DNA of 64,000 nucleotides from an uncultured Pseudomonadota bacterium (GCA_964651435.1 CAZYVU010000010.1:11392-75391); one strand, 5' to 3'. Counted from the stretch's first letter, positions 1 through 26,124 are shown. The notes: generated by a model from the letters alone, not told the origin. Numbers and translations: made by a program.

Positions 1-230
1 CTGCCAGCCCGATAAGCGACTTCACCTTTTCAGTCTCCGGAGGATCTTTTGCTGCTCAACGAGGCCGGAACTTGCGGCCGGCCTATGGTGCAGAAGCGCA
101 GATTCGAAGGCATCATCAAGGCCCTCTATGGCCCCCTGGGTGCTTATGACGTCGGTGCCGCGCTGCCGTTCAGTATTAAGGCGCTCCTCCACCCTTCGCC
201 ATCTCTGGACAAACGCTGCGAGAATGGTCC

Positions 231-412
231 CCGGGGTCACATCTTCAATTGTCAATTTTCGGCTACCTGTATTATCCTGGAAGCGAGAAGAGCCCAGGAT
301 GGTCTGGGTTTTGAGTTTCGGGTTCTGGGTTCTGGGTTTTTGGGTTCTCAGTTTTGGGGTAACACAAGCCGGAACGGGACATGGGAGATGGAATGCCGGA
401 AATGGGAAGCGG
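231..412. repeat. Composite intergenic repeat, copy L1: 25-nt core (reverse form CCGGGGTCACATCTTCAATTGTCAA) plus a ~150-nt tail with GGGTTYT-type and GGGARAT-type heptamer runs
   Basis: Read directly: 231-257 = CCGGGGTCACATCTTCAATTGTCAATT. The following ~150 nt aligns by eye with 1489-1633 (shared GGCTRCCTGYATTATCC..GCGAGAAGAGCCCAGGATG..TCTGGGTTTTGAGTTT..CCGGAACGGGA). It fills the gap downstream of the GT2 stop at 439. Confidence 0.9.
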
Positions 413-438
413 TTCAAAATTTTGCCTACCCTCAGCAG

Positions 439-1449
439 TCACGTGGCCTTGAACAGAAGGTCTACAATGGAGCTGTAGACGCCCTTTGAATATCGTTGGT
501 AGTGGCCTGTGCTCAACTCCCTTGCGATGGGCACCACCCTTCGGAACAGGCTTCCCGGCAAATGGCCGCGCACCCGAAGGTGGCTGAGCTTGCTATCGAT
601 TTTCGATAGGGCATCGGGGGCTGCCGGCCGGGCCGAGGCTTCCGCTACGCGACGGCGAAGCATCATGAATTGTTCAAACTGCCGATCGTAGGCCGAAGGG
701 GGGGCTTGCAGCGCCCCTCTTACCTTTCCCCAAAAGGTGAGCCTTCTGCCCCCGGCCTGATTGGCGGCGTGCTGGCGATACTTTGCCAAAGGCCTTTCAA
801 CCATGCCTACCCTGCCGAAAACCGCGATGACCAGACCGATCCAGTGGTCGTGCATCCACTCTGCCGGGATGGGAAGGAGCACCTCTCTGAACCGGGCCCG
901 GAAGGCCATTGTCATGCCTGTTGCCACGTTGTGGCGCAGGAGAACCTCCAGGGCATGGCCCTCCCGGACAAGCTTTCTGCTGCCGACGGGAAAGAATGTG
1001 GTGCTCTTGTCCCAGAGCAGGAGACCCATGGGCTCAAGCCCTTCACGGACCAGCTCCGCATCGGAAAACAGCGCATCGAGGTCCGGGTGCTCCAGGAAGG
1101 CCGCCGACAGCGCCGCAATCTTTTCCGGGTGCCACACGTCATCCTGGTCGCAGAGAGCGATAACGTCGCCGCTGCAGAGGCCTATTGCTTTCTCGAAGTT
1201 CTTCGTCGAGCCCAACCGGACATCGTTCACGGAGATGGACACCGGGAAACCTGCTTCCGCCGCGAAGTCCCTGCAAATCTTCAGGGTACGGTCCGTCGAG
1301 CAGTCATCGGAGATGACGACCTCGTCAGGCAGCCTGGTCTGAGCCGCAATGCTCTGAAGTTGTTCGGCGAGATAGAGCTCACCATTGTACGTACATAGAG
1401 CCACCGATATTCCCGTCCCCGGGCCCGTCCCCGGCGTCCCCGGGGTCAC
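439..1449 (-). CDS. Family 2 (GT-A fold) glycosyltransferase
   Basis: ISVALCTYNGELYLAEQLQSI, ISDDCSTD and CDQDDVW motifs are typical of GT2 enzymes. The ORF track gives 439..1500, but that start is the TTG of the repeat core. The GTG at 1449 (also repeat-derived) is my preferred start; the start is uncertain and the stop is firm. Confidence 0.8.
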   Translation of the reverse strand: MTPGTPGTGPGTGISVALCTYNGELYLAEQLQSIAAQTRLPDEVVISDDCSTDRTLKICRDFAAEAGFPVSISVNDVRLGSTKNFEKAIGLCSGDVIALCDQDDVWHPEKIAALSAAFLEHPDLDALFSDAELVREGLEPMGLLLWDKSTTFFPVGSRKLVREGHALEVLLRHNVATGMTMAFRARFREVLLPIPAEWMHDHWIGLVIAVFGRVGMVERPLAKYRQHAANQAGGRRLTFWGKVRGALQAPPSAYDRQFEQFMMLRRRVAEASARPAAPDALSKIDSKLSHLRVRGHLPGSLFRRVVPIARELSTGHYQRYSKGVYSSIVDLLFKAT

Positions 1450-1633
1450 ATTCCTGTCCCTGTCCCCGTAAGGGGGCCCGAATGGGGGTTCAATTGTCAA
1501 TTTTGGCTGCCTGCATTATCCCGGAGGCGAGAAGAGCCCAGGATGTTCTGGGTTTTGAGTTTTGGGTTTTGGGTTCTCGGTTTTAGGTTAACAGAAACCG
1601 GAACGGGAAATGGGAAATGGGAAATGGGAGAGG
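1439..1633. repeat. Composite intergenic repeat, copy L2 (core split by a 36-bp insertion, plus heptamer tail)
   Basis: The core halves CCGGGGTCACAT (1439-1451) and TTCAATTGTCAATTTT (1489-1504) are separated by TCCTGTCCCTGTCCCCGTAAGGGGGCCCGAATGGGGG. The tail 1505-1633 is similar to L1 and ends in GGGAAATGGGAAATGGGAAATGGGAGAGG, 3 nt before the fcl stop. Confidence 0.9.
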
Positions 1634-1636
1634 CCG

Positions 1637-2947
1637 TTACTGCACGGCCTTCACATACCACTCATAGGCCTTGCCGATGCCGCGGCCAAGCTCTACCTTG
1701 TGGTGCCAGCCGAGGCCGTGAAGGCGGGACACATCCATGAGCTTTCTCGGGGTGCCGTCGGGCTTCGATACGTCGAAGGCAATGGCGCCCTTGAAGCCGA
1801 CCACTTGGGCGACCATGAGCGCAAGGTCCCGAATGGTCAAGTCTTTTCCCATCCCGATATTGATCTGCGAAATACCGTTTTCGTAGAGGTCCGGCGCGTT
1901 TATGCGCTCCGCGATGTAGTATATGGCATCGGCCACGTCATCGACGTAGAGGAACTCCCGAAGGGGGCTCCCCGTGCCCCAGACGGTGACGGTGACCGAA
2001 GAGGGGTCCGAAGGGCCCGATGGATGGGCGGCAATCGGTGACCCGGCATTGGTCGAGGGCGCGGCGGCGTTCGGTGACCCGGCGGCTCCTGCAAGGCCCG
2101 TTGTCGCCCCGAGGCCGGTGGCGGGCCGCGAAGGGTCCGTCCCCTGAGTACTAATATTGACAATTGAAGATGTGACCCCGGCAGGGTCCGTGCCCTGAAT
2201 GCCGAAGGCGCCCAGGACGGCCAGAACGTCCGCCTCGGGCGACTGGCGGGAAATCACAATCTCCCTCCCCCCGGACCGGAGCCGGCCATTGCCGTATCTG
2301 AGAAAGTCGGCTCTGATGGCATCCCATTCTCCCTCGGCAAGAAGGCGGGCAAGGTGAAACTTGCGGATCAGCGCCGGCAGGACGTGAGACGTCTCCAGAT
2401 TGTAATTGTCGTTAGGGCCATAGAGGTTCGTGGGCATGACAGAAATGAAGTTGTCCCTGTATTGGCGGTAGTAGCTTTCGCACAGCTTGATGCCTGCTAT
2501 CTTCGCGATGGCATAGGGCTCGTTCGTGTATTCAAGGTAGCCGGAGAGCAGGCACTCTTCCCGCAACGGCTGGGGTGCGAGCTTCGGGTAGATGCAGGAG
2601 CTGCCGAGGAAGATGAGCTTCTTCACGCCGTGCTGGTGGGCCGCCTCGATGAGGTTGGCCTCGATCATGAGGTTCTGGTAAATGAATTCGGCCCGATAGG
2701 TGTTGTTGGCCATGATGCCGCCCACGCGGGCTGCGGCGATGATAACGTATTCCGGTCGCACCTCGGCGAAGAAGCGTTCCGTAGCGTCCTGGCGGATCAG
2801 ATCGAGCTCGTCCAACTCTCGCGTAACGATATTCTTGTGGCCTTCCGCAGCAAACTTGCGCAGGATCGCCGATCCCACCATTCCGGCATGGCCGGCTATG
2901 TATATCTTTGCATCCTTGTTGATTCCGTGTTGGTCTGCTTGCGACAT
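1637..2947 (-). CDS. fcl: GDP-L-fucose synthase (GDP-4-keto-6-deoxymannose 3,5-epimerase/4-reductase) carrying a ~65-codon in-frame insert
   Basis: N-terminal Rossmann [14 protein letters not shown], then [47 protein letters not shown] and [18 protein letters not shown] all match the Fcl/WcaG family as I remember it. The length is 436 aa. Confidence 0.9.
2147..2182. repeat. Core repeat copy inside fcl, bracketed by 15-nt direct repeats
   Basis: 2157-2181 = TTGACAATTGAAGATGTGACCCCGG. Flanks are AGGGTCCGTCCCCTG (2132-2146) and AGGGTCCGTGCCCTG (2183-2197), 51 nt apart. Confidence 0.9.
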
Positions 2948-3227
2948 GATGCCTCCGCCCAGCTTAAGGTCGAGCAGAAAGGGCCGATGCTTAAGACCGC
3001 TCTTTCAAAAAACCTTACTGCTTCGGACTGCTTCGGAAGAATTGCGTTGCTTTTGTCCGTGCTCGAGAAACTGAATGTGCGGCTTCCGTCGTACGAAATA
3101 TCTTCGAAGCGCCGGCATCGAGCACGCCCTCGGCCCTTTCGGTAAAGAATACCACAAGAAGCCTCGAATTCATAGAATGTCCGATAAAGGTCCGATAGTG
3201 ATCTCGCAGGGCCCCGCACGCCTTCGA

Positions 3228-4403: not shown

Positions 4404-4637
4404 CTATAGTCCTCAGCGTTCCCTTGCATGGTGTTGCTTCGGTAACGAACCTTTCCGCAGCAAGATGTGGAGACGGTCTCCTGCCGCATCTCCTACCCTA
4501 TCGCTTGCCTCCGCCTCCGGCCTCTGTTTCTGACCTCTATCGCTTGCCCATCTCCTACCACATCTCCGACTCTACCCCCGCTTACTCCTCCCCCATCGAG
4601 GGGAGAGGATTGAGGTGGGGGTCAAAAGGGTGCCGGC

Positions 4638-5555
4638 TTATGGTGCGTCAGGCCTTGCCAATCCCGAATATTGACAATTGAAGATGTGACCCCGAGGAAG
4701 GCGGAGGAAGGCGGAGAGGGCATCGCGCCAGGGCCGCATGGTGATGCCAAGCTCGCGGGCAAGCTTCGCCTTCGACATGTAGGAGTTCCTCGGTCGCGTT
4801 GCCTTCGTCGGATACTCCTCGGTGGATATGGGGACAATGCGCACGTCCCTCGTCACGAGGCCCCTTTCCCGGGCCAGGCGGTAGATTTCGGCGGCAAATG
4901 CGTGCCAGTTGGTTCTGCCCTCGTTCGTCACGTGATAGGTGCCGAAGCTGCTCGCATCGGCCTCGATGATCTGGGCGATTGTCCGGGCAAGGTCCACGGC
5001 GTAGGTGGGGCTTCCCCACTGATCGCAAACCACCCGCACCTCGTCTCTCTCGTTGAAGAGCCTGAGCATGGTGACGACAAAGTTGCCTCCGTACCTGCCG
5101 TAGAGCCAGGCGGTACGCAGAATAAAATGCCTGTCCCACGTAGCCTCCACGTATTGCTCGCCCAGGGCCTTGCTTTCACCGTATACGCAGAGAGGGTGAA
5201 GGGGGTCGGTCTCGCAGAGCTCTGCCCTATCGTCGCCGCCGCCTCCGAAGACGTAATCCGTGGAAATGTGGATCAGCCGCGCCCCCATATGGCGGGCAAT
5301 CTCGGCTACATTCCTGGCCCCGTCCGCGTTCAGCTCAAAGGCTCGGCCCCGTTCATCTTCCGCCCGGTCCACCGCCGTATAGGCGGCACAGTTGACGATC
5401 CATGAGAGCGGCTTGTGGCGGGCGAATTGCTCGAGGATCGCTTTATCTGCGATATCCACCTCGGCATCCGTGGCGGCGAAGGCCAAGCCGCGCTCCTTGA
5501 GGCACTCCTCCACCTCTCGGCCGAGCATGCCTTTATTTCCGATGAGCCAGATCAT
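4638..5555 (-). CDS. rmlD: dTDP-4-dehydrorhamnose reductase with a repeat-encoded C-terminal tail
   Basis: MIWLIGNKGMLGREV, NCAAYTAVDRAEDE, HISTDYVFGG, VYGESKALGE and RTAWLYG are the RmlD pattern. The last ~20 codons ([20 protein letters not shown]) are a translation of the repeat core at 4671-4694. Confidence 0.88.
   Translation of the reverse strand: MIWLIGNKGMLGREVEECLKERGLAFAATDAEVDIADKAILEQFARHKPLSWIVNCAAYTAVDRAEDERGRAFELNADGARNVAEIARHMGARLIHISTDYVFGGGGDDRAELCETDPLHPLCVYGESKALGEQYVEATWDRHFILRTAWLYGRYGGNFVVTMLRLFNERDEVRVVCDQWGSPTYAVDLARTIAQIIEADASSFGTYHVTNEGRTNWHAFAAEIYRLARERGLVTRDVRIVPISTEEYPTKATRPRNSYMSKAKLARELGITMRPWRDALSAFLRLPRGHIFNCQYSGLARPDAP
4655..4694. repeat. Core repeat copy with an upstream inverted-repeat arm (TTGCCAAT-N7-ATTGACAA)
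   Basis: 4671-4694 = TTGACAATTGAAGATGTGACCCCG. 4655-4662 TTGCCAAT is an imperfect complement of 4670-4677 ATTGACAA. Confidence 0.9.
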
Positions 5556-5785
5556 ATGAGTTCGGGGTTGGAAGTTACGAGTTCGGAGATTGGAGGAAGG
5601 ACAAAAAGCGACGAATGTCCCCTCAGGCGAAAAACCAACTCACCGAAATCCTTGTCGGTCGTGATTAGCAGGGCCTGTTTGTTGCGCGCCCCGAGATACG
5701 GTTGTCAGGGCTCTCCGAGAGACAAGCTTTCTGTCGTGCCTTATCCGGCATCAAGTATCCAGCGACCAGTATCCAAGACAACAAA

Positions 5786-5864
5786 TTGACAATTGAAGAT
5801 GTGACCCCGGAGAGAGGCAGGCCTTGTCAATCCGTAATATTGACAATTGAAGATGTGACCCCGG
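5786..5864. repeat. Two tandem core repeat copies (5786-5810 and 5840-5864), the second with the hairpin arm TTGTCAAT (5824-5831)
   Basis: Both copies read TTGACAATTGAAGATGTGACCCCGG exactly. The second ends flush against the GT4 stop codon (TTA on plus, 5865-5867). Confidence 0.95.
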
Positions 5865-7082
5865 TTAGGCCCCGGAGAGGACGCTGTCGAAGACGGCCGC
5901 CAGTTTGCCCGTCAGGCCTTCGCTCGAATATTGGCGGTCGATGGCATCATAGTCGGGCTGAAAGAAGTCGTACCGGCCCTTTTGCGCGATGATCTTCCTG
6001 AGCACGGCAGCTATCTCCTCCACCCGGTAGGGGTTGACGCATATCCCTGTCCGCGTCTCGCCGATGAACCGCTCCGCCTCGCTTCCTGCCGTGAGGGCCA
6101 GTATGGGTTTCCGTGCGCCGAAGTACTCATAGAGTTTCCCGGGCGCCGCGCTGGCTATCCCCTCCCCCGCAAAGAGGAGCAGAACATCGGCCGATACCTG
6201 GTATGTCAGGGCCTCCTCCCTCGGGACAGGGCCGTCACACCGAACCAGGTCGCGGTAGCGATCCGAGCCGAAGAGGGCCTTCTCCTCCTCCGTAAAGTCG
6301 CCCACCATCTGGATCGCCAGCCGGGCCTGCTCGTCCTTCTGCAGGCTTGCCGCGGCCTTGAGCAGAGGCTCGATGGTGGCCACGGCCCGGCTCTTGTACA
6401 GCCTGCCCGTAAATACGATGTTCATCTTCCCTCCCAGGTCCCGGGGCTTGATATGCTCATAGTCGGACCGGTCGAAGCCGTTGGTGATGGTCACGGCGTT
6501 ACAGCCCGGCCTTTGGAGGCAGAAGTAGTTCGTGATGGGATCGGACACGGCCGTAACAGCGGCGGCACGATTCACAACCTCGCTCTCGACACGAAGGTAC
6601 TTTTTCGATACAAGCGGCGGTTGGCTCTTCACCGGCTCAAAGGCAAGGCCGTCCCGGAAATCGGCAACGAGAGGAATAGAGTGTCTTCCGGCAACTTCAA
6701 GCCCTATGGCAAGGTTGTCGACGATGGGGTAAGTGGCGAAAATGAGCTGTACGTCGGCGGCCTTCAGGAGGCCCGAGAGTCCGTCGAGAACGGCCCTCTG
6801 CCAAAGACGCCGCCAGCCGGGCCACATGCCCGCCCGCCATGCAACTGCCCTGACGCCCTGCCAAAAGAGGCTCTTCGCATCCTTCGATCCCTCCATGGCA
6901 TCCATGGGGTCGGCGAAACGGAGGATGTCTTTCTCCCCCGGAGCCGTCAGGCCCACGTCGACGGTGGCCACGATGGCGCGATAGCCATAGCGCGGCAGAT
7001 AGGCGGCAAACTTCACGGGCCGGTGCACGCCGCCGTTGTTCATTGGCGCGTAGTAGTAGGCGATGAACAGGACGTTACGCAT
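5865..7082 (-). CDS. GT-B fold glycosyltransferase (GT4-like)
   Basis: The N-terminus MRNVLFIAYYYAPMNNGGVHRP is typical of GT4 N-domains. The C-domain shows NIVFTGRL..ADVLLLFAGEG..PGKLYEYFGARKPILAL (an E-x7-E-like region). ATG start, 3 nt from the next gene. Confidence 0.8.
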   Translation of the reverse strand: MRNVLFIAYYYAPMNNGGVHRPVKFAAYLPRYGYRAIVATVDVGLTAPGEKDILRFADPMDAMEGSKDAKSLFWQGVRAVAWRAGMWPGWRRLWQRAVLDGLSGLLKAADVQLIFATYPIVDNLAIGLEVAGRHSIPLVADFRDGLAFEPVKSQPPLVSKKYLRVESEVVNRAAAVTAVSDPITNYFCLQRPGCNAVTITNGFDRSDYEHIKPRDLGGKMNIVFTGRLYKSRAVATIEPLLKAAASLQKDEQARLAIQMVGDFTEEEKALFGSDRYRDLVRCDGPVPREEALTYQVSADVLLLFAGEGIASAAPGKLYEYFGARKPILALTAGSEAERFIGETRTGICVNPYRVEEIAAVLRKIIAQKGRYDFFQPDYDAIDRQYSSEGLTGKLAAVFDSVLSGA

Positions 7083-7085
7083 CTT

Positions 7086-11006: not shown

Positions 11007-11761
11007 TTGCGCACCGTCGCGCGCTCAAGCGCCGCCATGAGCCCCTTATCGATAACGGTGAAGGTGATACCCAGCAGAATGATGCCCCCGAAAACGACGC
11101 TGACGCGCAGGTGCTCCGCCGCGTCCCAGATCATGTAGCCCATTCCGAGGCCAGTGGCGGCGACAAGCTCGACGGCCACAACCGTTCGCCAGCACCGGGC
11201 AAGCCCTTGTCTAACACCCGTGAGAATGTGGATGGCAGCCCAGGGCACGTACACGTGAAGCACCATGGCAGGCCCCCGCACGCCCATTACCAGGGCCGCG
11301 CGCACCAGTCTCCTGTCGACGCTGCGCACCCCGGCCGATGCATTGTAGGCAAGGGGAAAAAAGCTCGCAACAGCCCCGATGGCGACGATCGTTCCGTCGC
11401 CGAAGCCCATCCAGATGATGAAGAGCGGCGCCATGGCGATGCCCGGTATGGGGAGGATCACGGCAAGGACAGGGGAAAGCAGCCGGTTCAGGCGGTCAAA
11501 AAGGCCCATGAGGACACCCGCCACTATACCCAGCGAGATGCCGATGAGCGAACCCAGCAGAAGGCGCCGCAACGTTGCCAGGAAATGGCCCAGCAGAACC
11601 GGTTTGCCTCCGGCCGAGAGGCGTTCGAGGCCCAGCATGTCGCTGAAGACCTGCGCGGGGGACGAGAAAAGGCCTTGTTCGAGCATGCCTGCCCATGCCA
11701 GGGCCTGCCAGAGGAGCAGGATGCCTGCCGGCGGCGCCAGAGCCAAGAGCATCTTTCTCAC
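10985..11761 (-). CDS. ABC transporter permease (NitT/TauT type), copy 1
   Basis: Hydrophobic multi-pass protein with SVDRRLVRAALVMGVRGPAMVLHVYVP. The ORF-track start at 11761 is a GTG touching the repeat core; an ATG lies at 11752. Confidence 0.85.
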   Translation of the reverse strand: MRKMLLALAPPAGILLLWQALAWAGMLEQGLFSSPAQVFSDMLGLERLSAGGKPVLLGHFLATLRRLLLGSLIGISLGIVAGVLMGLFDRLNRLLSPVLAVILPIPGIAMAPLFIIWMGFGDGTIVAIGAVASFFPLAYNASAGVRSVDRRLVRAALVMGVRGPAMVLHVYVPWAAIHILTGVRQGLARCWRTVVAVELVAATGLGMGYMIWDAAEHLRVSVVFGGIILLGITFTVIDKGLMAALERATVRKWGMVGR

Positions 11762-11784
11762 GGGGTCACATCTTCAATTGTCAA
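11761..11784. repeat. Core repeat copy (reverse form) between the SBP and permease genes
   Basis: 11761-11784 = CGGGGTCACATCTTCAATTGTCAA. The extended match CAGTATCCARGACAACAAATTGACAATTGAAG is shared with 5768-5797 (reverse complement). Confidence 0.95.
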
Positions 11785-11886
11785 TTTGTTGTCCTGGATA
11801 CTGGGGGCTGGTGATTGGGTTTGTCTGGTTTGTCTCGTTGTGAACAAAATAAACCTAACAAACCATATAGACCATATAAACCGCCT

Positions 11887-12885
11887 CTATTTCGCAGTTC
11901 GGCGCTCCCGTTCGCGAAGGGCCTTGGCCTCGGCAAGCAGGGAGGCGTCCCACTTGATGGCGGGGATACGGTCGATCTTCTTCTCGGCGTGGAGGAACCT
12001 TGCCGCCTCCTGCACGTCCTTTACAATCCCTTCATCAAGGTCCAGAGAGAAGTCGATGCGCTTAAACACCCGCTCGAAGACCTCGGGGGACACGTTGTAG
12101 CCTTTCTGATTTGCGGCCTGCGCCGCCACCTTGGCCGCCCTTTTCGGGTCGGTCCGGATGAAATCGGCCTTATCGAGGTGGGCGGCCAGAAACCGCACGA
12201 TCTCCGCCCGGTTCGTACGAACAAAGTCCGCTGTTGTGTGGAGGAGGACGGGAACACGCGAAACGTCGCCGTATGTCCGGAGCACCCGGCCCGACCCTTG
12301 AGCCTCCGCGATGGCGCAGGTCGGCTCCCATGCCGTGAAGGCCTCGATGGAGCCGCCTTTGAGCGCCGCACCCATGTCCTCGATCTTCAGGTTCACCCAC
12401 CGAAAGTCGTCCCAGGAGAGGCCTTTTGTCCTCTCGAAATACTTCCTCAGCACCTGTTCGGCCCCGGTGCCGAGACGCGTCGCCACCGTCTTGCCCTTGA
12501 GGTCGCTCCACGAGCCGTATTTCGAGTTGGCCCTCACCACCGTGGCGTATCGGTCGCCCCGCTGAACGACGCCGACGATGACGGCCCGGTCGCCGAGGGC
12601 ATTGAAGAGTTCTACGCTCTTGCTGTCGCTTCCACAGTTGATCTTGCAGCGCCCGGCAATGAGGGCCTGGTTGCCCTCCGTACCGGAACTGAAGAGGAGG
12701 TGCTCCACCGCCAGCCCGTAGCGTTTCCAAAGCTCAGGCTGCCCCTGGAGCAGAAACTCCTCCGGATAATACTGCCCTGCGTAGCAGAAGGGGCTGCTCT
12801 TCTGGGCCCAAGCCGTCGTGCCATGCCCTGCCAGGAGAAGTGCAAAAATGACGATACCAATGGATAAAGCGGTTCCTGTCTTCAT
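11887..12885 (-). CDS. ABC transporter periplasmic substrate-binding protein (NMT1/THI5-like, NitT/TauT type)
   Basis: Signal peptide MKTGTALSIGIVIFALLLAGHGTTAWA. The size, alternating pattern and gene context with two permeases and an ATPase fit this family. Confidence 0.8.
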   Translation of the reverse strand: MKTGTALSIGIVIFALLLAGHGTTAWAQKSSPFCYAGQYYPEEFLLQGQPELWKRYGLAVEHLLFSSGTEGNQALIAGRCKINCGSDSKSVELFNALGDRAVIVGVVQRGDRYATVVRANSKYGSWSDLKGKTVATRLGTGAEQVLRKYFERTKGLSWDDFRWVNLKIEDMGAALKGGSIEAFTAWEPTCAIAEAQGSGRVLRTYGDVSRVPVLLHTTADFVRTNRAEIVRFLAAHLDKADFIRTDPKRAAKVAAQAANQKGYNVSPEVFERVFKRIDFSLDLDEGIVKDVQEAARFLHAEKKIDRIPAIKWDASLLAEAKALRERERRTAK

Positions 12886-12888
12886 TCT

Positions 12889-13539
12889 CTAATGATCCTT
12901 TGAAAAATGAAAGTATCTCCACGATAGATACTCAAGGGTCTCCCCCGGCACAAAGCCACGGGAGACACATTCGCGGCCCAGCCTCTTTTCGTCAAAACCC
13001 CCATAGCCCAGCTCCCACCTGTGGTTCTTAGTCTCCAGCCGGCTCTTTTTCCACCTGACGTACATGCTCTTTCTCAACCGGAGCACTTTGACGTCAAAGA
13101 TGCACCTGCGCACGGAAAAAAGCGGCAGGCTTATGAACAGGCCCCCGGTGACGTAGTCCTTGATATTGTCCAGCACGACGCCCAACTCCTCAAACTCCAT
13201 ATGCTCGAATACCTCGAAGGCACAGAAATGATCGAAGGGTCCGGCGGGGCGGTAGTCAACGGCGTCGATGACGATATCGGGCGACTTTGCCGGATCGATG
13301 TCCAGCGTAGTCACCGTGACGCCCTTTGTCCTCAGGTAATTGGCCAGGAAGCCCGTCCCGATGCCAAGCTCCACGACAGAATCCCCCGGCCTAACGTGGC
13401 CCTCCATGAGCTTCAACTGATACCAGTAGGAATTCCAGTGCTCGATCCGTTCGAGACTGTGAATCCATTCCGAATCGTAGCTTCTCTTTCGGTCTGCCAA
13501 ACCGTTACCGGATGAAGCCGTGCCTTCTGAGCAGGGCAA
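12889..13539 (-). CDS. Class I SAM-dependent methyltransferase
   Basis: Motif I VVELGIGTGFLANYL followed by the acidic TLDID. The start is a TTG in the ORF track and is uncertain. Confidence 0.75.
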   Translation of the reverse strand: MPCSEGTASSGNGLADRKRSYDSEWIHSLERIEHWNSYWYQLKLMEGHVRPGDSVVELGIGTGFLANYLRTKGVTVTTLDIDPAKSPDIVIDAVDYRPAGPFDHFCAFEVFEHMEFEELGVVLDNIKDYVTGGLFISLPLFSVRRCIFDVKVLRLRKSMYVRWKKSRLETKNHRWELGYGGFDEKRLGRECVSRGFVPGETLEYLSWRYFHFSKDH

Positions 13540-15082
13540 AGGCAGGTCTTCGCAGCTCGTCGTCTCTCAGAAAAACAAGGAGGTAGTAGCCGAGCGTTGC
13601 GGCCGCCATGACCGCCACCAACGGAAAATGTGACAGTCCGAACCACCACTTGCCGATTGCGATGGCTGCCAGGAAGGGGCTGCCGACGAGACAGCATCTT
13701 GCCAGGTGGAATAACGTCCGTCCGGCCGAAAGCCCGACCATGGTATTGAGCCACACGCAGAGGGCACCATAGCAGAGGGCGCTGGACACAGTGAACAAAG
13801 CGAGCGTCAGCATAATGTTGCCCGTCAGGCCGCCTATTACGAGCGACAGAAGCCTGACCGTGAAGAGTATGGCGTTAAATAGAAGGGCCTGGCTCTGCTT
13901 CTCCATGACGCTGGTGAGGGTGCTCATGGGGGACGAAATAAACTGGAGAAAGAGCCACACCCCCGTAATCTGAACGTACGTTCCAGCCTCCGCCCATTTG
14001 TCCCCGAAAACGATGATGAAGAGCTCCCGGCCCGCTATCGTGAGCAGGAGGATGGGAAACATGCCGTAGCCGATAAGCCTCTTGTACACGTCATCAACGA
14101 GCCCGGCAAGGTTGTCCCGCGACCGGAACGCCTCTGCCGTCCTCTGAAAAAAGACCTGCGCTATGGCCCCCCCGGCCAGGACCATGGGTGCGGCGAGCAC
14201 CGTTCGCCCAAGGTCGTAGAAGCCCACGATAGCCGGTGAAAAATAGATGGCCAGGACCCAGGTGGGGACGCTGTGGGACGCCGCGTTCAGCAGGGCGGAC
14301 CAGGAACCGAAAAGCGGAAACCTCTTATAGCGCCTCAGGCCCACCTGCACGGACCGCCAATTGACACCGGGACGGAGCCTTCGCCGGTCATCCCTTAAGA
14401 TTTGGCCGCCCAGAAAGAGGACCGACAGGAGGTTGCCGAGAACGGCCGAGCAGATCAGAACGCCCCCGCTCACGAAGCCCGAAAACCCGAGGCCCAGCTT
14501 GGTCCCCTGGGCGAAGATCGATGAAAGGCCCTGGGCAACGGAGAGGCGGCCGAACCGCCTCCTCCTCGTGTTCCACGAATTGAGTGCCAGAAAAAAACCT
14601 CCAAGGCACACGGACAGGGGCATGAGCCAGAGGTATTTGAGGAGCATGGGCGCATTGAGGGCCCTCGCCAGGTCCTTTCCGAAAAAGAAAAGCAGTATCG
14701 AGACGAGGGCGGTCATTGCGATGGTAAGCAGAATGCAGAGCACGAAGAGACCCGCCGCCTCCTCGTCCGTCTCGGGCAGCATGATGGCGAGCTCGTACCG
14801 CAAGCAGGTCACGAGGGTGATGACGACGGATATGGAGACAAAGAGCGCGGCAACGCCGAAGGCCTCCGGCGCAAAGAGGCGCGTTGTTACCGGGGCCGCC
14901 AGGATGCCGATGGCGTGGGCGAAGACGTTGCCCGTGATGAGCTTGAACACACTGCCGGCAAAGCTGTAAGGCCTTCCCGTTTCCGGCCCTGCCTCCGGCC
15001 CGTCAGCCTGCAACAGGGGTCTCCAGGGCAGCGCGAAGCGCCTCGGCGACGACGGCCTGCTGACCCTCCGCCAGAAAGGCAC
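13505..15082 (-). CDS. Polysaccharide flippase, MOP/Wzx-like
   Basis: About 12-14 hydrophobic segments. The N-terminal LITGNVFAHAIGILAAPVTTRLFAPEAFG is typical of polysaccharide-biosynthesis (Wzx/RfbX) proteins. The annotated GTG start overlaps the upstream gene by 80 nt, so the true start is probably further in. Confidence 0.75.
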   Translation of the reverse strand: MPFWRRVSRPSSPRRFALPWRPLLQADGPEAGPETGRPYSFAGSVFKLITGNVFAHAIGILAAPVTTRLFAPEAFGVAALFVSISVVITLVTCLRYELAIMLPETDEEAAGLFVLCILLTIAMTALVSILLFFFGKDLARALNAPMLLKYLWLMPLSVCLGGFFLALNSWNTRRRRFGRLSVAQGLSSIFAQGTKLGLGFSGFVSGGVLICSAVLGNLLSVLFLGGQILRDDRRRLRPGVNWRSVQVGLRRYKRFPLFGSWSALLNAASHSVPTWVLAIYFSPAIVGFYDLGRTVLAAPMVLAGGAIAQVFFQRTAEAFRSRDNLAGLVDDVYKRLIGYGMFPILLLTIAGRELFIIVFGDKWAEAGTYVQITGVWLFLQFISSPMSTLTSVMEKQSQALLFNAILFTVRLLSLVIGGLTGNIMLTLALFTVSSALCYGALCVWLNTMVGLSAGRTLFHLARCCLVGSPFLAAIAIGKWWFGLSHFPLVAVMAAATLGYYLLVFLRDDELRRPAFALLRRHGFIR

Positions 15083-16121
15083 CCATTGGAAGGCTCATGA
15101 CCTCCCGGCTCGTTTCTTCGGCCACGGGAAAACTGTTCTTCCCATGGCCCAGGTGCGCATAGGCGGGCTGGAGGTGGACAGGCGTTTCATAGTAGACGGC
15201 GACGGAAATGCCGCCGGCGCGCAACGCCCTCACCACAGCGTCCCGGCGGGGTACGAGGATGGAGTACTGGGCGAAAACCGGTCTCACCCCTTCTCGAATG
15301 ACGGGCCTCTTTAGGCCCGGCAGACCGGCCAAGAGCGCCCCGTAGCGGGCGGCGGCCTCCTCTCTTCTCGCGATCTCATCATCGAGGCGTCTCAGTTTGA
15401 CCCTGAGGATCGCCGCCTGGATGGCATCCAGCCTCGAGTTCAGCCCGACCGAATAAGCCTCGCCTTTCCCGTCTAATCCGTGGCGCCTCAACTCTTTCAG
15501 CTTCAGGGCCAGGGAGGGATCGTCCGTAAAAACGGCCCCACCGTCGCCGTAGCCGCCCAGGGGCTTGGACGGAAAAAAGCTTGTGCAGCCTATGCCGGAA
15601 AGGGCGCAGGACCGCGTCCCCTTGTAACGGGCGCCAAAGCTTTGGGCACCGTCCTCTATCACAGGAAGGGAGTGGCGGGCGGCGACGGCGTTAATCTCAT
15701 CAAAATCGGCCGGTTGTCCGAAGAGGCCGACGGCAACGATGGCCTTGGTCCGCTCCGTAATCTTCGGCTCAATCCGGGCGGCGTCGATGTTGAACGTCTC
15801 CTTGTCGATATCGGCGAAAACGGGTGTTGCCCCGCGCAGCGCGATGGCCCCTGCCGTTGCCGCGAAGGTAAACGGCGTGGTGATCACCTCATCCCCCGCC
15901 CCTATCCGGAGGGCCATGAGGCTCAGGACGAGCGCATCGGTGCCGCTGGCGCAGGTAACGGCATGCCTAACGCCCACATAGGAGGAAAGCTCCGTCTCCA
16001 GCGCCTCCACCTCTTCTCCGCCGATAAAGGCGGCAGAATCGAGGACACGCTGAATGGCGCCGTCGATCTCTTCCTTGTATGCGCGATACTGGGCCTTTAG
16101 GTCAACAAGGGGGATCTTCAT
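15003..16121 (-). CDS. wbpE: DegT/DnrJ/EryC1 family sugar aminotransferase, WbpE-like
   Basis: MKIPLVDLKAQY, CASGTDAL, VIEDGAQSFGA, CTSFFPSKPLGGYGDGGA and NSRLDAIQAAIL closely follow the P. aeruginosa WbpE sequence as I recall it. Confidence 0.88.
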   Translation of the reverse strand: MKIPLVDLKAQYRAYKEEIDGAIQRVLDSAAFIGGEEVEALETELSSYVGVRHAVTCASGTDALVLSLMALRIGAGDEVITTPFTFAATAGAIALRGATPVFADIDKETFNIDAARIEPKITERTKAIVAVGLFGQPADFDEINAVAARHSLPVIEDGAQSFGARYKGTRSCALSGIGCTSFFPSKPLGGYGDGGAVFTDDPSLALKLKELRRHGLDGKGEAYSVGLNSRLDAIQAAILRVKLRRLDDEIARREEAAARYGALLAGLPGLKRPVIREGVRPVFAQYSILVPRRDAVVRALRAGGISVAVYYETPVHLQPAYAHLGHGKNSFPVAEETSREVMSLPMGAFLAEGQQAVVAEALRAALETPVAG

Positions 16122-16127
16122 GGCGAT

Positions 16128-18537: not shown

Positions 18538-18570
18538 AACTCTAAGTCTCCGGAAGCAATGCGGGAGTCG

Positions 18571-19527: not shown

Positions 19528-21824
19528 CTTCTCCGGCTCATGCTCCGCAACTGCTCCATGCCCTGGAGTGCGTACTGGTCTTCGGGGGCGTAAACGAGTA
19601 TACGCTCGAAGGCGCTGCGCGCCTTGGCAATGTCGCCGAGAGAACCGTAAGCACCGCCCACGATGAGGAGTGCTATTGCGTTATTGGGATCTTCCTTGAG
19701 CACATCCTCGGCCTCCTTTAAAGCCTCGGCGAAACGCCCCTGCTGGCTCAGGATGAGCGCCAGTGTGAGCTTGGCCGTCTCCCACTCTTCTTCTCGGTCT
19801 CCACGGGCCTCCAGGGCATGGACGCGGGCGCGATAGGTCCGCTCGGAAGCGGCAAACCCGCCCGCCGCTTCGAGAATCTCCGCCTCCAAAAGATAATGCG
19901 AGAAGTCGCCCGGCCGCATCTCCTTGGCCCGGCGGGCGGAGGAGAGCGCTTGGTCAAGCTTGTTCTGCTGCTTGTAATAAACGGCCAGCACCATGTGGAC
20001 CGTGTCGTTGTTCGGATCCATCGCCAGGACTTGCCGAACGGCCTCTTCGGCATCGGCGTCCGGTTCGGAGGCCCTTCCGTGGGCGAGCTCGGCAGATTCC
20101 AGGTTTATCTGATGGAGCAGCACGTAGGCGTCAAAGGGGTTTGCCCGTTCGGCCTCGTCGAGCACCGTTGCGGCCGCCTCGTGGGCCTTGAGGTCGCCCG
20201 TCTCGGCAAACCGGGCCGAATAGATCTGCCCGGCCACGTCGTAATAGTGGTAATCGCTGCCGGCCAGCTCGAGGCCGGACTGTATGTTCGACTCGATCCG
20301 GGGCCACTGCCTCTTCACGTCCATGGACAGGCTCTGCCAGAATAGGCGGTCGACGACCATCGTTCGCGCCGTGTCTGCACATAAGAGGACCAGAAATATG
20401 ATGGTGATGGACGCCCCGGCGAGGGCAGCACGCCTTGTCGACGGATGGGGCTGAGCGGCAGGCTTGGGGACCTCAAAAGGTACCGCTGCGGCGACGGCAA
20501 GGCCGAGAATGGCCCAGAAATATGCCGCATGGGAGATCTCCGGCCATCCCGTGAGGTCCTCTGCCAGGTAGCTCACAATGGCGGCCAGAAAGGCGGCCTT
20601 TAGGAGAGGAGGCGCGCCTGCGTTGTTAGGAGAGGGCCTGCGGAGGAGCAGAGAGAGCACGGCAGCGATGAGCAATAGGTAAAGGAGGAGGCCGGGGATA
20701 CCGCTTTCGACGGCCACCTGGAGATACATGTTATGCACTTTCGTGGGGGTCATATCCTTGGTCTGAGCCAGTCGGCCCTCGGCCTCAAGACGATACCGCG
20801 GGTAGGTGAGCCGGAAACCGTCGAATCCCACACCAAACCAGGGATAGTCCCTTATGCTCAGCGCTGCGCCCCTGTACCAGTAGCCCCTGTCTGTCGTGGC
20901 CAGCTCGTCCTTCAGGGAAATGATGGCCCGGAAGCGCTCGCCGACCTGGACGACGCTTCTCCAGTTGGTCGCCAGGATGACCGACAGCCCCAGGAGGAAC
21001 AGTGCGGCGACGATGAGCGCCTTTTTGCGATCCATACCTTTTTGGAGCAGCAACGCGCCGACCATGATCACGGCCGACAAGAGGCTGCCGACGAGCGGCG
21101 CCCTGCTCAGGGTCGCCACAACGGCCGAAAGCAGAATGAATGCCGCAACCGCCCACAGAATGCGCTCAAAGGGCCTGGCGGCGGAGATGGCAAAGAACAG
21201 CGCAAAGGGAAAGCACAGGGAGAGCAACGTCGCCGTTACCGTCGGATTGCCGATCGTCGACCCTCCGTTCCTGACAACACCCCTCCACGCCATGAAATCC
21301 ATGCCGTAGCACTGGGCGATGGCATAGAGGGCTACCGGAATAAAGGTGCAGACCAGGATCCCCAGAATCCTCTTCAGCTTTCCCTCGTCGATGGGGAGGG
21401 TCGAGCAGGTCACAAAGAGGATGAGATAGTTTATGTGCGTCCAAAGGCCCTTGTACCCGTCGTGCACGCCGGAGAGCGCCGTGGGCTTGTGGAGGGCAAA
21501 AAAGGTGCTGAACACCCACCAGGCAAAGAGGGCGAACAGCGGGTAGGAGACAACCCTCGGCGGAAACCGGAGCCGGCCCTGCCTCAGCCGGTAGACCCAC
21601 AGAATGACCAGAAGGAGCGTCGATATCCTGAGCGCGAAGAGCTTCGCGAGGATGAACTGTGACGCCAAGCCGGTGGAAAAGACGAAGGCGACGGATAGGA
21701 AGAGAATGGCAAGGGCTGCCTCTTCGAGGCCGAAGCCGGTGCCTGTCCGGGCGATAGCGGTACGGCCGGGAGTCGTCGCGGCACGGCCGGGGGCTCGAGC
21801 TGCCGGGGCTGATTTCTTACTCAT
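19524..21824 (-). CDS. O-antigen ligase/polymerase-like (Wzy_C) membrane domain fused to C-terminal TPR repeats
   Basis: About 12 hydrophobic helices over the first ~480 aa with the TLSRAPLVGSLL loop, then ~280 aa of TPR-like helical repeats (AVYYKQQNKLDQALSSARRAKEMRP ..). Confidence 0.8.
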   Translation of the reverse strand: MSKKSAPAARAPGRAATTPGRTAIARTGTGFGLEEAALAILFLSVAFVFSTGLASQFILAKLFALRISTLLLVILWVYRLRQGRLRFPPRVVSYPLFALFAWWVFSTFFALHKPTALSGVHDGYKGLWTHINYLILFVTCSTLPIDEGKLKRILGILVCTFIPVALYAIAQCYGMDFMAWRGVVRNGGSTIGNPTVTATLLSLCFPFALFFAISAARPFERILWAVAAFILLSAVVATLSRAPLVGSLLSAVIMVGALLLQKGMDRKKALIVAALFLLGLSVILATNWRSVVQVGERFRAIISLKDELATTDRGYWYRGAALSIRDYPWFGVGFDGFRLTYPRYRLEAEGRLAQTKDMTPTKVHNMYLQVAVESGIPGLLLYLLLIAAVLSLLLRRPSPNNAGAPPLLKAAFLAAIVSYLAEDLTGWPEISHAAYFWAILGLAVAAAVPFEVPKPAAQPHPSTRRAALAGASITIIFLVLLCADTARTMVVDRLFWQSLSMDVKRQWPRIESNIQSGLELAGSDYHYYDVAGQIYSARFAETGDLKAHEAAATVLDEAERANPFDAYVLLHQINLESAELAHGRASEPDADAEEAVRQVLAMDPNNDTVHMVLAVYYKQQNKLDQALSSARRAKEMRPGDFSHYLLEAEILEAAGGFAASERTYRARVHALEARGDREEEWETAKLTLALILSQQGRFAEALKEAEDVLKEDPNNAIALLIVGGAYGSLGDIAKARSAFERILVYAPEDQYALQGMEQLRSMSRRR

Positions 21825-22124
21825 AGGTTTGAAATAATGTTACGGCAATTAGGTCTTGACAGTGCTTGTTCGAGCAGGCTACCGCCCTCGATGTCTTAAA
21901 ACACCCGGTATTGAACACGACTTCACAACAGCAAAAAAGGCCTGCGTCATACCCCAAGGGAGTATCGCATCAGCCCCTCATTCCTTCCTGCCCAAAAGGC
22001 CAACGATATCCCTCCGGAACAGGTCCCAGCATGCCAATGTATTATTCGTTGTTATATCCCACATGGTTAGTTGCCGTCAAGCTTGAGACCCCTTGATAGA
22101 CAACGGAAAAGGGGGCATGGGGCG

Positions 22125-23072
22125 CTATTTTGCCAACGGCCGGCCCGAGGGCTGCGAACCGTCCGACACGATCTTTCGGGGGGTGGCCCCGGGAAAGAGG
22201 TCGAGGTACCAGAGATCGGATGTGGCCCTCGAATCGGCACCAGGCCTTTCGAAAATGATGGCCCTGCCGTGGCTCACGAAGGTGGGGTTCGACCCCTCGG
22301 TGATTCTGCGCTTTGTGCCCTTCTGAACGTTGACCAGATAGATTGTGCCCCGGGAGGATTCATAGTTGCCCGGACCGTAGCAGAGGATTGCGCTCCCATC
22401 CCGATCAAAACGAGGGCGCCAATAGGGGGTGCTATCGGTGCCTTGGGGGAAATGAAAAACAGGCTTTCCGCCCGACTCTATGACCTCCAACCCTCCGGAC
22501 AGGTCATTCGTGTGCTCGCTGTATGCCACCTGCCTGCCGTCAGGCGAAAAGGAAGGCCAGGCATATACGCGGCCCGTGTCTATCAACACGTCGGAGCTGC
22601 CCGCAAAAACGGACGATGTGAGGCTCAGCAAATCGATGACGATAAGGGCCACATTGGCAAATGAAATGGAGTCGTCGCCGATCCAATATGTTTTCATGTT
22701 GGAAACGCCCGCAAAGATGAGACTCGTACCGTCGGGTGAAAAGGCGGGGTGGGCCCCTCCCCGTATGCCGCGCAGCGAAAATCGCTTGGCGGGGCCGCCT
22801 CTTGCGGGAACGAGATAGATGCTTCCGAGATCCGGCGATTCGTCGGTGCCGGTAATATAGGCCACCCACTTTCCGTCGGGCGAAATGGCGGGGTGGGTAT
22901 CCTGCCCCGAAAAGGTCAATTGCTTCTCCCAGCTCCCCTTCGCATTGGCGACCCATATGTTGCCCCGGCGGACAAAAGCGATAGCAGCCTCTTCGGCCGC
23001 CGCGGGGATGGTCAAAAGGAGGGACGCGAAAATAACAAAGAATACCAACAAGCGGACTGGGGCACGACTCAT
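22125..23072 (-). CDS. Periplasmic PD40/TolB-like beta-propeller protein
   Basis: Signal peptide MSRAPVRLLVFFVIFASLLLTIPAAA. Repeated P.xSPDG motifs (HPAISPDGKWVAY, HPAFSPDGTSLIF, WPSFSPDGRQVAY). I use the ATG at 23072. Confidence 0.85.
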   Translation of the reverse strand: MSRAPVRLLVFFVIFASLLLTIPAAAEEAAIAFVRRGNIWVANAKGSWEKQLTFSGQDTHPAISPDGKWVAYITGTDESPDLGSIYLVPARGGPAKRFSLRGIRGGAHPAFSPDGTSLIFAGVSNMKTYWIGDDSISFANVALIVIDLLSLTSSVFAGSSDVLIDTGRVYAWPSFSPDGRQVAYSEHTNDLSGGLEVIESGGKPVFHFPQGTDSTPYWRPRFDRDGSAILCYGPGNYESSRGTIYLVNVQKGTKRRITEGSNPTFVSHGRAIIFERPGADSRATSDLWYLDLFPGATPRKIVSDGSQPSGRPLAK

Positions 23073-23151
23073 AGGTACCTCATTATACCACGGAGCGGAC
23101 CGGGAAAGTCCATGCATACCTCGCCTATCTCCGGAGCTGTCCCTATATTCT

Positions 23152-23180
23152 TTGACAATCGGTTTTGCACCTGGTACCAT
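23152..23180 (+). promoter_or_regulatory. Putative sigma70-type promoter (TTGACA-N17-TACCAT) ending 6 nt before the ATG
   Basis: TTGACA at 23152-23157 and TACCAT at 23175-23180 with a 17-nt spacer. The ATG of the TPR lipoprotein is at 23187. Confidence 0.4.
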
Positions 23181-23186
23181 GCTTGT

Positions 23187-23702
23187 ATGTTACGGGTTAC
23201 AGCGCTTATGGCGGTTCTGGTGGGGACCCTTTTCCTCCCCGGTTGCTTCAACTACGTCTACGACATGAACCGGGAGGCCGACGAGGCCATCACCGCCGGC
23301 AATTACGGCCAAGCCCTCGGGGCCTACGACCGGGCCATCAACCTAAACCCCAGGGATGCCGAAGCCTATATGGGGCGAGGCTACGTGCACCAGCGTCTGG
23401 GCAACTATCATGGGGCGATTGCGGACTTCTCGCGCGCTATCGAACTCATGCCGAACAACGCCACGCCCTTCTTCCTGCGGGGTATGGCCTACAGCATGAG
23501 CGGCGACAACGAGCGGGCCGTGAAGGATTACTGGCAGTCCATAGCCCGCGACCCCGGCAACAGCGACGTCTACTTCAACCTTGCCGAGTCTTACAATGCC
23601 CTCGGCGACAGGGGTAAAGCGCTTGAAAACTATCGCAAAGCGGCCAAGCTCGGCAACGCCGACGCCCAAAACGCATTGAAGCAGCAAGGGTTCGGCTGGT
23701 AA
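23187..23702 (+). CDS. TPR-repeat lipoprotein
   Basis: Lipobox LFLPGC after a hydrophobic N-terminus. Four TPR units (AYDRAINLNPRDAEAYMGRGYV .. ). The ORF-track start at 22749 lies antisense to the neighbouring gene. Confidence 0.8.
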   Translation: MLRVTALMAVLVGTLFLPGCFNYVYDMNREADEAITAGNYGQALGAYDRAINLNPRDAEAYMGRGYVHQRLGNYHGAIADFSRAIELMPNNATPFFLRGMAYSMSGDNERAVKDYWQSIARDPGNSDVYFNLAESYNALGDRGKALENYRKAAKLGNADAQNALKQQGFGW

Positions 23703-23746
23703 GATACCCGTCGTTCCAGGTGCAACCCGGGCAAACTCCCAGCAAA

Positions 23747-23771
23747 TTGACAATTGAAGATGTGACCCCGG
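23747..23771. repeat. Core repeat copy flush against the stop codon of the Moco subunit gene
   Basis: 23747-23771 = TTGACAATTGAAGATGTGACCCCGG, followed immediately by TTA (the stop of the minus-strand gene). Confidence 0.95.
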
Positions 23772-26111: not shown

Positions 26112-26124
26112 CGTCGCCCCCTCC

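Follow-up and report, generated by a model that had tools for sequence, protein, structure and literature searches.

The window analysed here is a stretch of 64,000 nucleotides from an uncultured Pseudomonadota bacterium (GCA_964651435.1, CAZYVU010000010.1:11392-75391), and its first 24 kb carry eight copies of a short sequence motif. This motif is very likely the terminal inverted repeat, 24-26 nucleotides long, of a family of mobile elements whose autonomous form spans about 1 kb and encodes a RAYT-like transposase of the Y1/HUH type, as in the elements named TIRYTs or TIRtrons. The repeat has a polarity, wherein the outer end reads GGGGTCAC... and the inner end reads ...TTGTCAAT. The same ends bound non-coding miniatures of about 46, 75, 163, 195 and 253 bp, which are analogous to REPINs and to miniature inverted-repeat transposable elements (MITEs), and they also occur solo. 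Demonstrated here are the repeat and its sharp boundaries, its architecture of inverted pairs, its association with a transposase gene, and an insertion relative to a homologous gene.

Eight copies of the repeat in the window

Both strands of the window were scanned with a 25-nucleotide query, TTGACAATTGAAGATGTGACCCCGG, allowing up to three mismatches. There are five perfect matches, located at 231-255(-), 2157-2181(+), 5786-5810(+), 5840-5864(+) and 23747-23771(+), and two matches with one mismatch, at 4671-4695(+) and 11760-11784(-), wherein the last base is the mismatched position in both. The number expected by chance is 0.00, as judged from 100 shuffles that preserve dinucleotide frequencies. 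An eighth copy was recovered by searching separately for the two halves of the motif, which are found at 1489-1500(-) and 1440-1452(-) with 36 bp inserted between them. Thus, seven copies with at most one mismatch and one split copy bear out the original prediction of eight copies, all in the first 24 kb. The 36-bp insertion and the three sub-families with shared longer context that it described were also recovered, although some of its positions are off by 1-2 nucleotides.

The placement of all eight copies within the first 24 of 64 kb has a probability of about 4e-4 if copies are distributed uniformly. There is no real copy past 24 kb of the window with six edits tolerated, where the sole match, at 48777, is spurious and carries six edits, and there is none in the 7.3 kb that contig L141 adds past the right end of the window. 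The unit reaches 1-2 nucleotides beyond the 25-mer on the TTGACA side (ATTGACA...), and the conserved block can be written as (A/T)ATTGACAATTGAAGATGTGACCCC. The copies in the window all have a coding region at their GGGG/CCCC outer end and non-coding DNA on the TTGACA side. Rfam models gave no match at the gathering threshold anywhere in the window. A single copy, on either strand, folds with a minimum free energy (MFE) of 0 kcal/mol, which is no better than shuffled sequences. This agrees with the earlier view that the motif is not a GC hairpin of the REP type. The same view that it is not CRISPR is also correct, given that the copies are irregularly spaced on both strands and form no regular repeat-spacer array.

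A transposase gene between inverted copies

There are seven complete units of about 1 kb (1021 bp) that were found through the motif, and they are located in related genomes, outside the window. Their product is 302-314 amino acids long and matches the Pfam family Y1_Tnp (IS200-like) at 2.5e-13 and the NCBIfam model REP_Tyr_transpos (REP-associated tyrosine transposase) at 4.5e-21, wherein the latter score of 75.3 bits is below the equivalog cut-off of 80. The only significant PDB match by sequence is 4ER8, the E. coli TnpA-REP or RAYT protein. The same structure is the top Foldseek match (E 2.4e-7, TM 0.74) of an AlphaFold model with a pLDDT of 78.8, and it is followed by the transposases of IS608, ISDra2 and IS200. 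The HUH histidines H60 and H62 (NHYHLL) and the tyrosine Y119 of YIHGNP are invariant in 29 sequences. The C-terminal domain is helical in the model (residues 227-299, pLDDT about 77-88), and its similarity to Bac_DnaA_C is sub-threshold (E about 0.05 in 6 of 14 members; E 0.65 for DnaA domain IV in a comparison of the profile with PDB). The protein family comprises 4244 database clusters at E <=1e-20, and its named members, from Thermodesulfobacteriota, Syntrophaceae and Deltaproteobacteria, are called either 'REP element-mobilizing transposase RayT' or 'transposase'.

Because the 1-kb units had been found through the motif, homologues were then picked by protein similarity only. The four homologues chosen in this way (P0124, P0162, P0126 and P0176) share 63-65% identity with the L119 protein and reside in four distinct gene neighbourhoods, and all four are flanked by inverted repeats. 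The upstream repeat, GGGGTCACATCTTCAwwTGTCAtTAAT, is located 36-64 nucleotides before the start, and the downstream repeat, AATGACATATGAAGATGTGACCCC, overlaps the stop codon. These repeats differ from the window motif at two or three inner positions, and the outer TGAAGATGTGACCCC is identical. Another homologue, P0128, which was picked for its IDN ending, has an exact ATTGACAATTGAAGATGTGACCCC on both flanks. The last two residues are DI or DN in 23 of the 25 homologues inspected, and their codons and the stop come from the repeat as GAC-ATA-TGA or GAC-AAT-TGA.

The repeat thereby supplies the stop codon and the last two residues of the TIRYT gene. In addition, the DNA that separates the 5' repeat from the start codon of the TIRYT gene has a conserved canonical promoter, TTGACA-N17-TATGAT/TAGAAT (L143-L149 and L119).

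The nature of this gene bears on whether the motif could be the inverted repeat of a DDE-type transposon, for example of the Tn3 family, or of MITEs derived from one. Tn3-family inverted repeats likewise begin with GGGG, and the length of 24-26 nucleotides and the MITE-like doublets described below would also be in keeping with such an origin. However, the gene between the repeats is of the Y1/HUH rather than the DDE type, there is no target duplication of 5 bp or any other length, and the window has a single DDE transposase gene (62249-63604), which is separated by 38 kb from the nearest copy and has none beside it. A DDE transposon is thus an extremely improbable source of the repeat. The gene at 62249-63604(+) is of the IS4/IS5 type (DUF772 and DDE_Tnp_1) and is unrelated to the repeat.

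Inverted pairs and miniature forms

Besides the window, 136 loci were examined with up to five edits allowed, and 39 of these contain more than one copy. There are 27 adjacent inverted pairs in which GGGGTCAC...TCAAT and ATTGACA...GACCCC bound an interior with their inner ends facing, and there is one pair in the reverse order. Start-to-start spacing is about 21 nucleotides at L005, L011 and L105, about 51 at seven loci, 139-144 at five loci and about 997 at seven loci. Total lengths are thus quantised at about 46, 75, 163 and 1021 bp, and there are two more forms, with spacings of 171 nucleotides at L126 (195 bp in total) and 229 nucleotides at L029 (253 bp in total).

The short paired forms are non-coding. 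The 163-168-bp form can be called a MITE because its interior is conserved. Doublets of 45-77 nucleotides fold to near-perfect hairpins, with values of -22.7 and -23.5 kcal/mol and z of about -9 to -10. None of 17 doublets is flanked by a target-site duplication, and there is no general flanking duplication over 137 instances, consisting of the 130 instances described below and the window's own. Target-site duplication is not expected for Y1/HUH elements.

Sharp boundaries in unrelated contexts

The exact 21-mer GACAATTGAAGATGTGACCCC is found in 16 contigs from about a dozen species-representative metagenome-assembled genomes (MAGs) among 185,579 representative genomes, and the flanks are unrelated. 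The contigs are labelled as delta-proteobacteria, Syntrophaceae or Thermodesulfobacteriota, with the labels WOR-3 and Nitrospirae for two small contigs. This 21-mer is also found in at least 120 metagenome contigs, mainly from sediments and wetlands, and has no match in viral contigs. Most genomes have only one or two copies per contig.

Removal of redundant flanks left 130 instances. Conservation is near-complete over WATTGACAATTGAAGATGTGACCCC and falls to the background level on both sides, and the flanks show just a weak preference for AAW.CCC, beyond the CCCC end. Since a sharply bounded, identical unit sits in unrelated contexts, we consider it to be an inserted element rather than a diverging regulatory site. 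The copies are mostly intergenic. In a crude census of open reading frames (ORFs), the DNA beyond the outer end holds 40 same-strand gene starts and 38 opposite-strand stops, such that there is no orientation bias relative to genes over these 130 independent instances, an outcome that the original prediction had named as counting against it.

These counts also bear on the possibility that the motif is a portable promoter or other 5' regulatory element that drives glycan and toxin-antitoxin genes, with its perfect TTGACA serving as a -35 box. Such a role might be suspected from contig L017 of the same species, where six or seven copies in a row precede co-oriented operons, and from several copies in other MAGs that are located 1-25 nucleotides upstream of an ATG. 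However, the side that should face gene starts meets a convergent stop as often as a same-strand start. Furthermore, the six positions 17 nucleotides after TTGACA read AAWTCC-like, with no TAnnnT -10 element at positions +1 to +6 past the motif, and the toxin-antitoxin operons are equipped with TGGTATAAT promoters of their own, which follow the motif. Conservation over the full 24 nucleotides and inverted pairs around a transposase gene are not properties of a promoter. The lack of a single-copy hairpin, of a general target duplication and of an orientation bias likewise disfavours this reading, and we regard a promoter function as very unlikely.

The presence of the same sequence in many species, with unrelated flanks and sometimes in inverted pairs after genes, could also bring to mind a DNA-uptake-type signal or an oligonucleotide skew shared by a lineage. 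However, most contigs have only one or two copies, the 21-mer is restricted to 16 contigs in the representative genomes, 47 kb of the same genome have none, and the motif is physically tied to a transposase gene. An uptake signal is thus scarcely credible.

Relationship to known repeat-transposase systems

Di Nocera (2013) described RAYT-like genes that have long terminal inverted repeats instead of REP hairpins, and named them TIRtrons or TIRYTs (PMC3733652). Many of these terminal inverted repeats (TIRs) share an outer GGGGWSAS (PMC3733652; PMC6006769), a TIR may overlap the 3' end of the TIRYT gene, and some genomes have moderately abundant TIR families whose copies are single, dimeric or grouped (PMC3733652). 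Quentin (2018) placed 20 of 26 described TIRYTs in TnpA-REP subclass 2.1, whose traits are a C-terminal domain resembling Bac_DnaA_C, HTH_23 or HTH_28 and the absence of REP hairpins (PMC6006769).

The elements described here resemble TIRtrons in several respects. In the related genomes, a RAYT-like Y1/HUH gene for a protein of about 300 amino acids is located between long, non-palindromic inverted repeats, and one repeat overlaps the 3' end of the gene. The outer eight nucleotides, GGGGTCAC (reverse complement of the motif), fit GGGGWSAS. Copies are dispersed singly, as are the eight in the window and the four in contig L017, and elsewhere as doublets of 45-253 bp. The C-terminal extension is helical, with sub-threshold similarity only to helix-turn-helix (HTH) or DnaA_C domains. 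In contrast to the published TIRtrons, the size classes of the miniature derivatives are discrete and the species of the window has solo ends only, with no transposase gene in 75 kb. In addition, neither this repeat sequence nor this host range, which consists of sediment MAGs of the Thermodesulfobacteriota/Syntrophaceae type, was found in the literature searched.

REP and REPIN-RAYT systems (Nunvar 2010; Bertels & Rainey 2011, PMC3116915; Messing 2012, PDB 4ER8) are similar in that short inverted repeats flank a single Y1 gene of the same fold, inverted doublets with short spacers form long REPIN-like hairpins and singlets also occur, and sites are mainly extragenic, often just 3' of genes. 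However, the unit here is not palindromic (MFE 0) and has no GTAG/CGTC tag, its ends being GGGG... and ...CAAT with flanks that are not conserved. The protein scores just below the RAYT equivalog cut-off (75.3 versus 80 bits), and its length is double that of E. coli TnpA-REP. Because two defining points fail, namely the palindromic unit and the GTAG/CGTC tag, the repeat is not a canonical REP or REPIN. Similarly, the IS200/IS605 elements IS608 and ISDra2 share the HUH/Y1 catalytic domain and the lack of target-site duplication, but their ends are asymmetric sub-terminal hairpins instead of terminal inverted repeats. Insertion beside a fixed target of 4-5 nucleotides is not seen here either, where there is only the weak AAW.CCC in the outer flank.

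From these sequence comparisons, the repeat is filed with the TIRYT/TIRtron kind and would work like a REPIN-RAYT system. Thus, the core, which the original prediction could place in no repeat family, corresponds to the terminal inverted repeat of TIRtron/TIRYT-type elements (PMC3733652, PMC6006769). It thereby belongs to a known kind of element, and only the exact repeat sequence is new. The motif and its reverse complement are absent from the full text of the literature searched, and for this reason we consider the motif to be an undescribed sequence family within a described class, made up of TIRYT terminal repeats and their MITE-like derivatives.

Individual copies and the genes they touch

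The minus-strand genes from 439 to 21824 constitute a glycan cluster. Its members encode a GT2 protein, GDP-fucose synthase, UDP-GlcNAc 2-epimerase, RmlD, a GT4 protein, an ATP-grasp protein, an ABC transporter, a flippase, an aminotransferase, acetyltransferases and a Wzy-like protein. Past this cluster, the gene at 23772-26315(-) encodes the molybdopterin-binding subunit of an enzyme of the xanthine-dehydrogenase family. The copies were thus correctly assigned to the glycan cluster and to the edge of molybdoenzyme genes, but the label of a molybdenum cofactor (Moco) operon does not hold, since these are genes for molybdenum hydroxylases of the xanthine-dehydrogenase family rather than for Moco biosynthesis. 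The copies and the sequences joined to them are listed in the table.

Terminal repeats and associated features of the window
Feature	Position	Strand	Remarks
Solo terminal repeat, perfect	231..256	-	Left-facing outer end, CCGGGG on the + strand; L1 module on the inner side
L1 inner module, about 175 nt, non-coding, joined to the inner end of the repeat	257..430	-	Heptanucleotide tandem repeats at 303-360
Split terminal repeat	1440..1501	-	GC-rich 36-bp insert at 1453-1488; outer end at the 5' end of the GT2 ORF
L2 inner module, paralogue of L1	1502..1636	-	Heptamer repeats at 1545-1589 and 1605-1629; occupies the fcl-GT2 intergenic space
fcl surface-loop in-frame insertion, 174 nt / 58 aa	2009..2182	-	No counterpart in P0002, the closest homologue
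Solo terminal repeat inside the GDP-L-fucose synthase gene fcl (1637-2947, -)	2156..2181	+	In-frame reading GVTSSIVNI
Solo terminal repeat, 1 mismatch, overlapping the 3' end of rmlD (4638-5555, -)	4670..4695	+	
Solo terminal repeat, perfect	5785..5810	+	First of a direct pair, 54 nt apart
Terminal repeat, perfect	5839..5864	+	Outer end abuts the TAA stop of the GT4 gene (5865-7082, -), no spacer
Solo terminal repeat, 1 mismatch	11760..11785	-	Outer end 0-15 nt upstream of the ABC-permease start
Solo terminal repeat, perfect	23746..23771	+	Outer end abuts the TAA stop of the molybdopterin-binding dehydrogenase gene (23772-26315, -), no spacer

The insertion seen by comparison with a homologue is the one in fcl. 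P0002, which is closest to Fcl at 74% identity, has no counterpart of the 58-residue segment, which begins with the motif. The repeat and nine more nucleotides (2148-2182, 35 nucleotides) are bracketed by a 16-nucleotide direct duplication, 2132-2147 and 2183-2198, with 15 of 16 positions identical. The remainder of the insertion (2009-2130) is low-complexity coding sequence for Ala, Gly, Pro and Ser. It holds two near-repeats of 21 nucleotides, GCCGGGTCACCGAACGCCGCC and GCCGGGTCACCGATTGCCGCC, that resemble the repeat outer end GCCGGGGTCAC and may be footprints of earlier events.

In rmlD, the overlap with the repeat starts at residue 287 of 305, just past the end of the Pfam domain, such that the repeat and its inner flank encode the last 18 residues of RmlD. 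Inverted partners in this species are 8-nucleotide remnants at most. One of these, TTGCCAAT, is found at 4654-4661, seven nucleotides inside the rmlD copy, and the other, TTGTCAAT, is found at 5823-5830, where it pairs with the inner end of the copy that abuts the GT4 gene to form a small hairpin. A third exact abutment on a TAA stop, in addition to the two in the window, is found in the unrelated high-GC contig L140. The inner end of the copy by the ABC-permease gene faces the intergenic region 11786-11886, which has nonanucleotide tandem repeats. Several of the solo copies are joined to a non-coding inner module of 60-190 nucleotides, as in L1, L2 and the toxin-antitoxin spacers of contig L017, and the L1 module is common to L2 and to a third copy in this contig.

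There are further irregularities of the DNA around these copies. The insert in the split copy reads CCCCCATTCGGGCCCCCTTACGGGGACAGGGACAGG on the minus strand and interrupts the repeat between GAA and GATG, and directly outside this copy are tandem units of the GTCCCCGG type (1412-1447), through which the GT2 ORF remains readable. A perfect 10-nucleotide tandem duplication, GAGGAAGGCG, present in 2.3 copies at 4694-4716, extends from the outer edge of the repeat within the rmlD 3' end. The ORFs 49-489(+) and 22-417(-) that cross L1, of which a public gene call gives 146 amino acids, are probably spurious and derived from the repeat-rich spacer. Intergenic DNA beside the repeats (303-360, 1545-1589, 1605-1629 and 11818-11882 in the window; 15058-15118 and 15918-15975 in L017) is composed of hepta- and nonanucleotide tandem units, such as TCTGGGT, GTTTTGG, GGGAAAT, GGTTTGTCT and ATAAACCAT. 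The units in L017 form long, near-perfect hairpins with 29-nucleotide arms that are 97% complementary and a 3-nucleotide loop, and AAACCA-type runs of a similar kind adjoin the motif in unrelated MAGs, for example at L002 and L042.

Surroundings of the window in the same species

Contig L017, from the same species in another sample, is 99.9% identical and extends 4 kb past the left end of the window. It adds four copies just left of the window, between toxin-antitoxin operons, and at least two of these toxin-antitoxin modules have their own TGGTATAAT promoter, downstream of the motif.

The region 12797-16000 of this contig is a row of small defence and toxin-antitoxin modules, consisting of an AbiEii/DUF6036-like module, DUF433 with DUF5615/PIN twice, and a HicA/HicB-like module. 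Each is preceded by one forward repeat copy and an inner module. Such repeat-separated cassettes suggested an integron with attC sites, which was rejected because no R' and R'' boxes were seen by eye and there is no integrase nearby. The sole integrase fragment noted is a 138-amino acid phage-integrase fragment at 8791-9207 of L141, about 4-8 kb past the right end of the window.

Four same-species assemblies from different samples (L017-L020) show no rearrangement and no presence/absence difference relative to the window, and differ only in scaffold gaps of 100 N. The gaps 11513-11612 and 13506-13605 of L017 fall exactly within L-type repeat modules, and such modules thus break short-read assemblies.

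In the part of the window that has no repeat, the ORF at 31015-38571(+) encodes 2518 amino acids with about 28 RCC1 repeats (RCC1-like beta-propellers) and 13 InlB B-repeat-like domains. The G+C content falls from 0.60-0.65 to 0.51-0.57 over the last 22 kb (42000-64000), which suggests that this is a compositionally distinct segment.

Proposed mechanism and alternatives

The mechanism that we propose for the TIRYT is drawn from the biochemistry of IS200/IS605 TnpA and of E. coli TnpA-REP. By analogy with these enzymes, the TIRYT would recognise the ends of the repeat, nick and rejoin single-stranded DNA without duplicating the target, and thereby move or copy the ends through single-stranded intermediates. 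It might also act in trans on units that have no transposase gene of their own. The eight copies of the window and the four outside it would then be solo, non-autonomous products or remnants of TIRYT activity, and by this analogy the window copies are best read in that way. Within this region of glycan-biosynthesis and toxin-antitoxin genes, the solo copies would have been kept where an insertion is tolerated, namely in intergenic spacers, in the last codons of genes and in a variable surface loop of Fcl.

Several observations fit this mechanism poorly. A tblastn search found no TIRYT gene in the window, in the 4 kb that L017 adds on the left or in the 7 kb that L141 adds on the right, about 75 kb in total. 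Since neither the window nor about 11 kb of flanking DNA holds a transposase gene, the window copies have to be considered solo ends, and indeed all 12 copies in this species are solo. These copies are nearly perfect, unlike decaying relics. The 16-nucleotide duplication in fcl is a one-off, and canonical Y1 transposition does not generate duplications of this kind. The three exact TAA abutments are also not readily accommodated. In addition, the invariance of all 24 nucleotides across genomes is partly an artefact of the search with an exact 21-mer, and no experiment on any TIRYT, mobilisation included, was found in the literature searched, where the names TIRYT and TIRtron occur in just two papers.

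These points would allow for a route that is one-ended or based on template switching, or else for selection that acts on solo copies. In the first case, the solo ends would not be dead relics but would be both generated and maintained by such a TIRYT process. At gene boundaries, they could then provide stop codons or C-terminal tails, or be protein-binding or recombination sites that modularise the glycan and toxin-antitoxin cassettes. The clean 35-nucleotide insert and its 16-nucleotide duplication, in frame within fcl, can be cited for this process, which we consider unlikely. If true, it would be the first functional or mechanistic handle on TIRYTs.

In the second case, the solo copies would be domesticated sites under selection at gene or cassette boundaries, either as binding sites for the DnaA-like HTH of the TIRYT or for a host protein, or as recombination sites for the shuffling of cassettes. 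Sites of this kind would account for copies that are near-perfect although solo, that are strongly clustered in a variable-looking region, and that in the window always have the outer end against a coding region, with exact TAA abutment three times (two in the window and one in L140). The weak DnaA_C-like character of the C-terminal domain in the family's transposase would be in line with such a binding role. However, there is no recombinase or TIRYT gene nearby, the four same-species assemblies differ only in scaffold gaps, and the published TIR consensus is unlike a DnaA box (PMC6006769). Moreover, in a small sample from this species the repeat is not significantly better conserved than the inner flank (about 2-3% versus 6% divergence). 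Domestication is thus quite unlikely, and the preferred reading is still that the copies are terminal repeats left by TIRYT activity.

Implications

A conserved 25-mer that could formerly not be placed is now assigned to a known but almost unstudied class. The family is unusually clean, in that its end is invariant, its autonomous unit spans 1 kb and its miniature derivatives form at least four size classes. In practical terms, the repeat marks break points of assemblies, as with the scaffold gaps of L017 that lie within elements, and it misleads gene callers, which results in spurious ORFs across L1 and in chimeric gene ends. Solo ends also alter real genes, given the in-frame insertion of 58 amino acids in GDP-fucose synthase and the replaced C-terminus of RmlD. 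Thus, the family would be a good system for asking whether TIRYTs mobilise their repeats.

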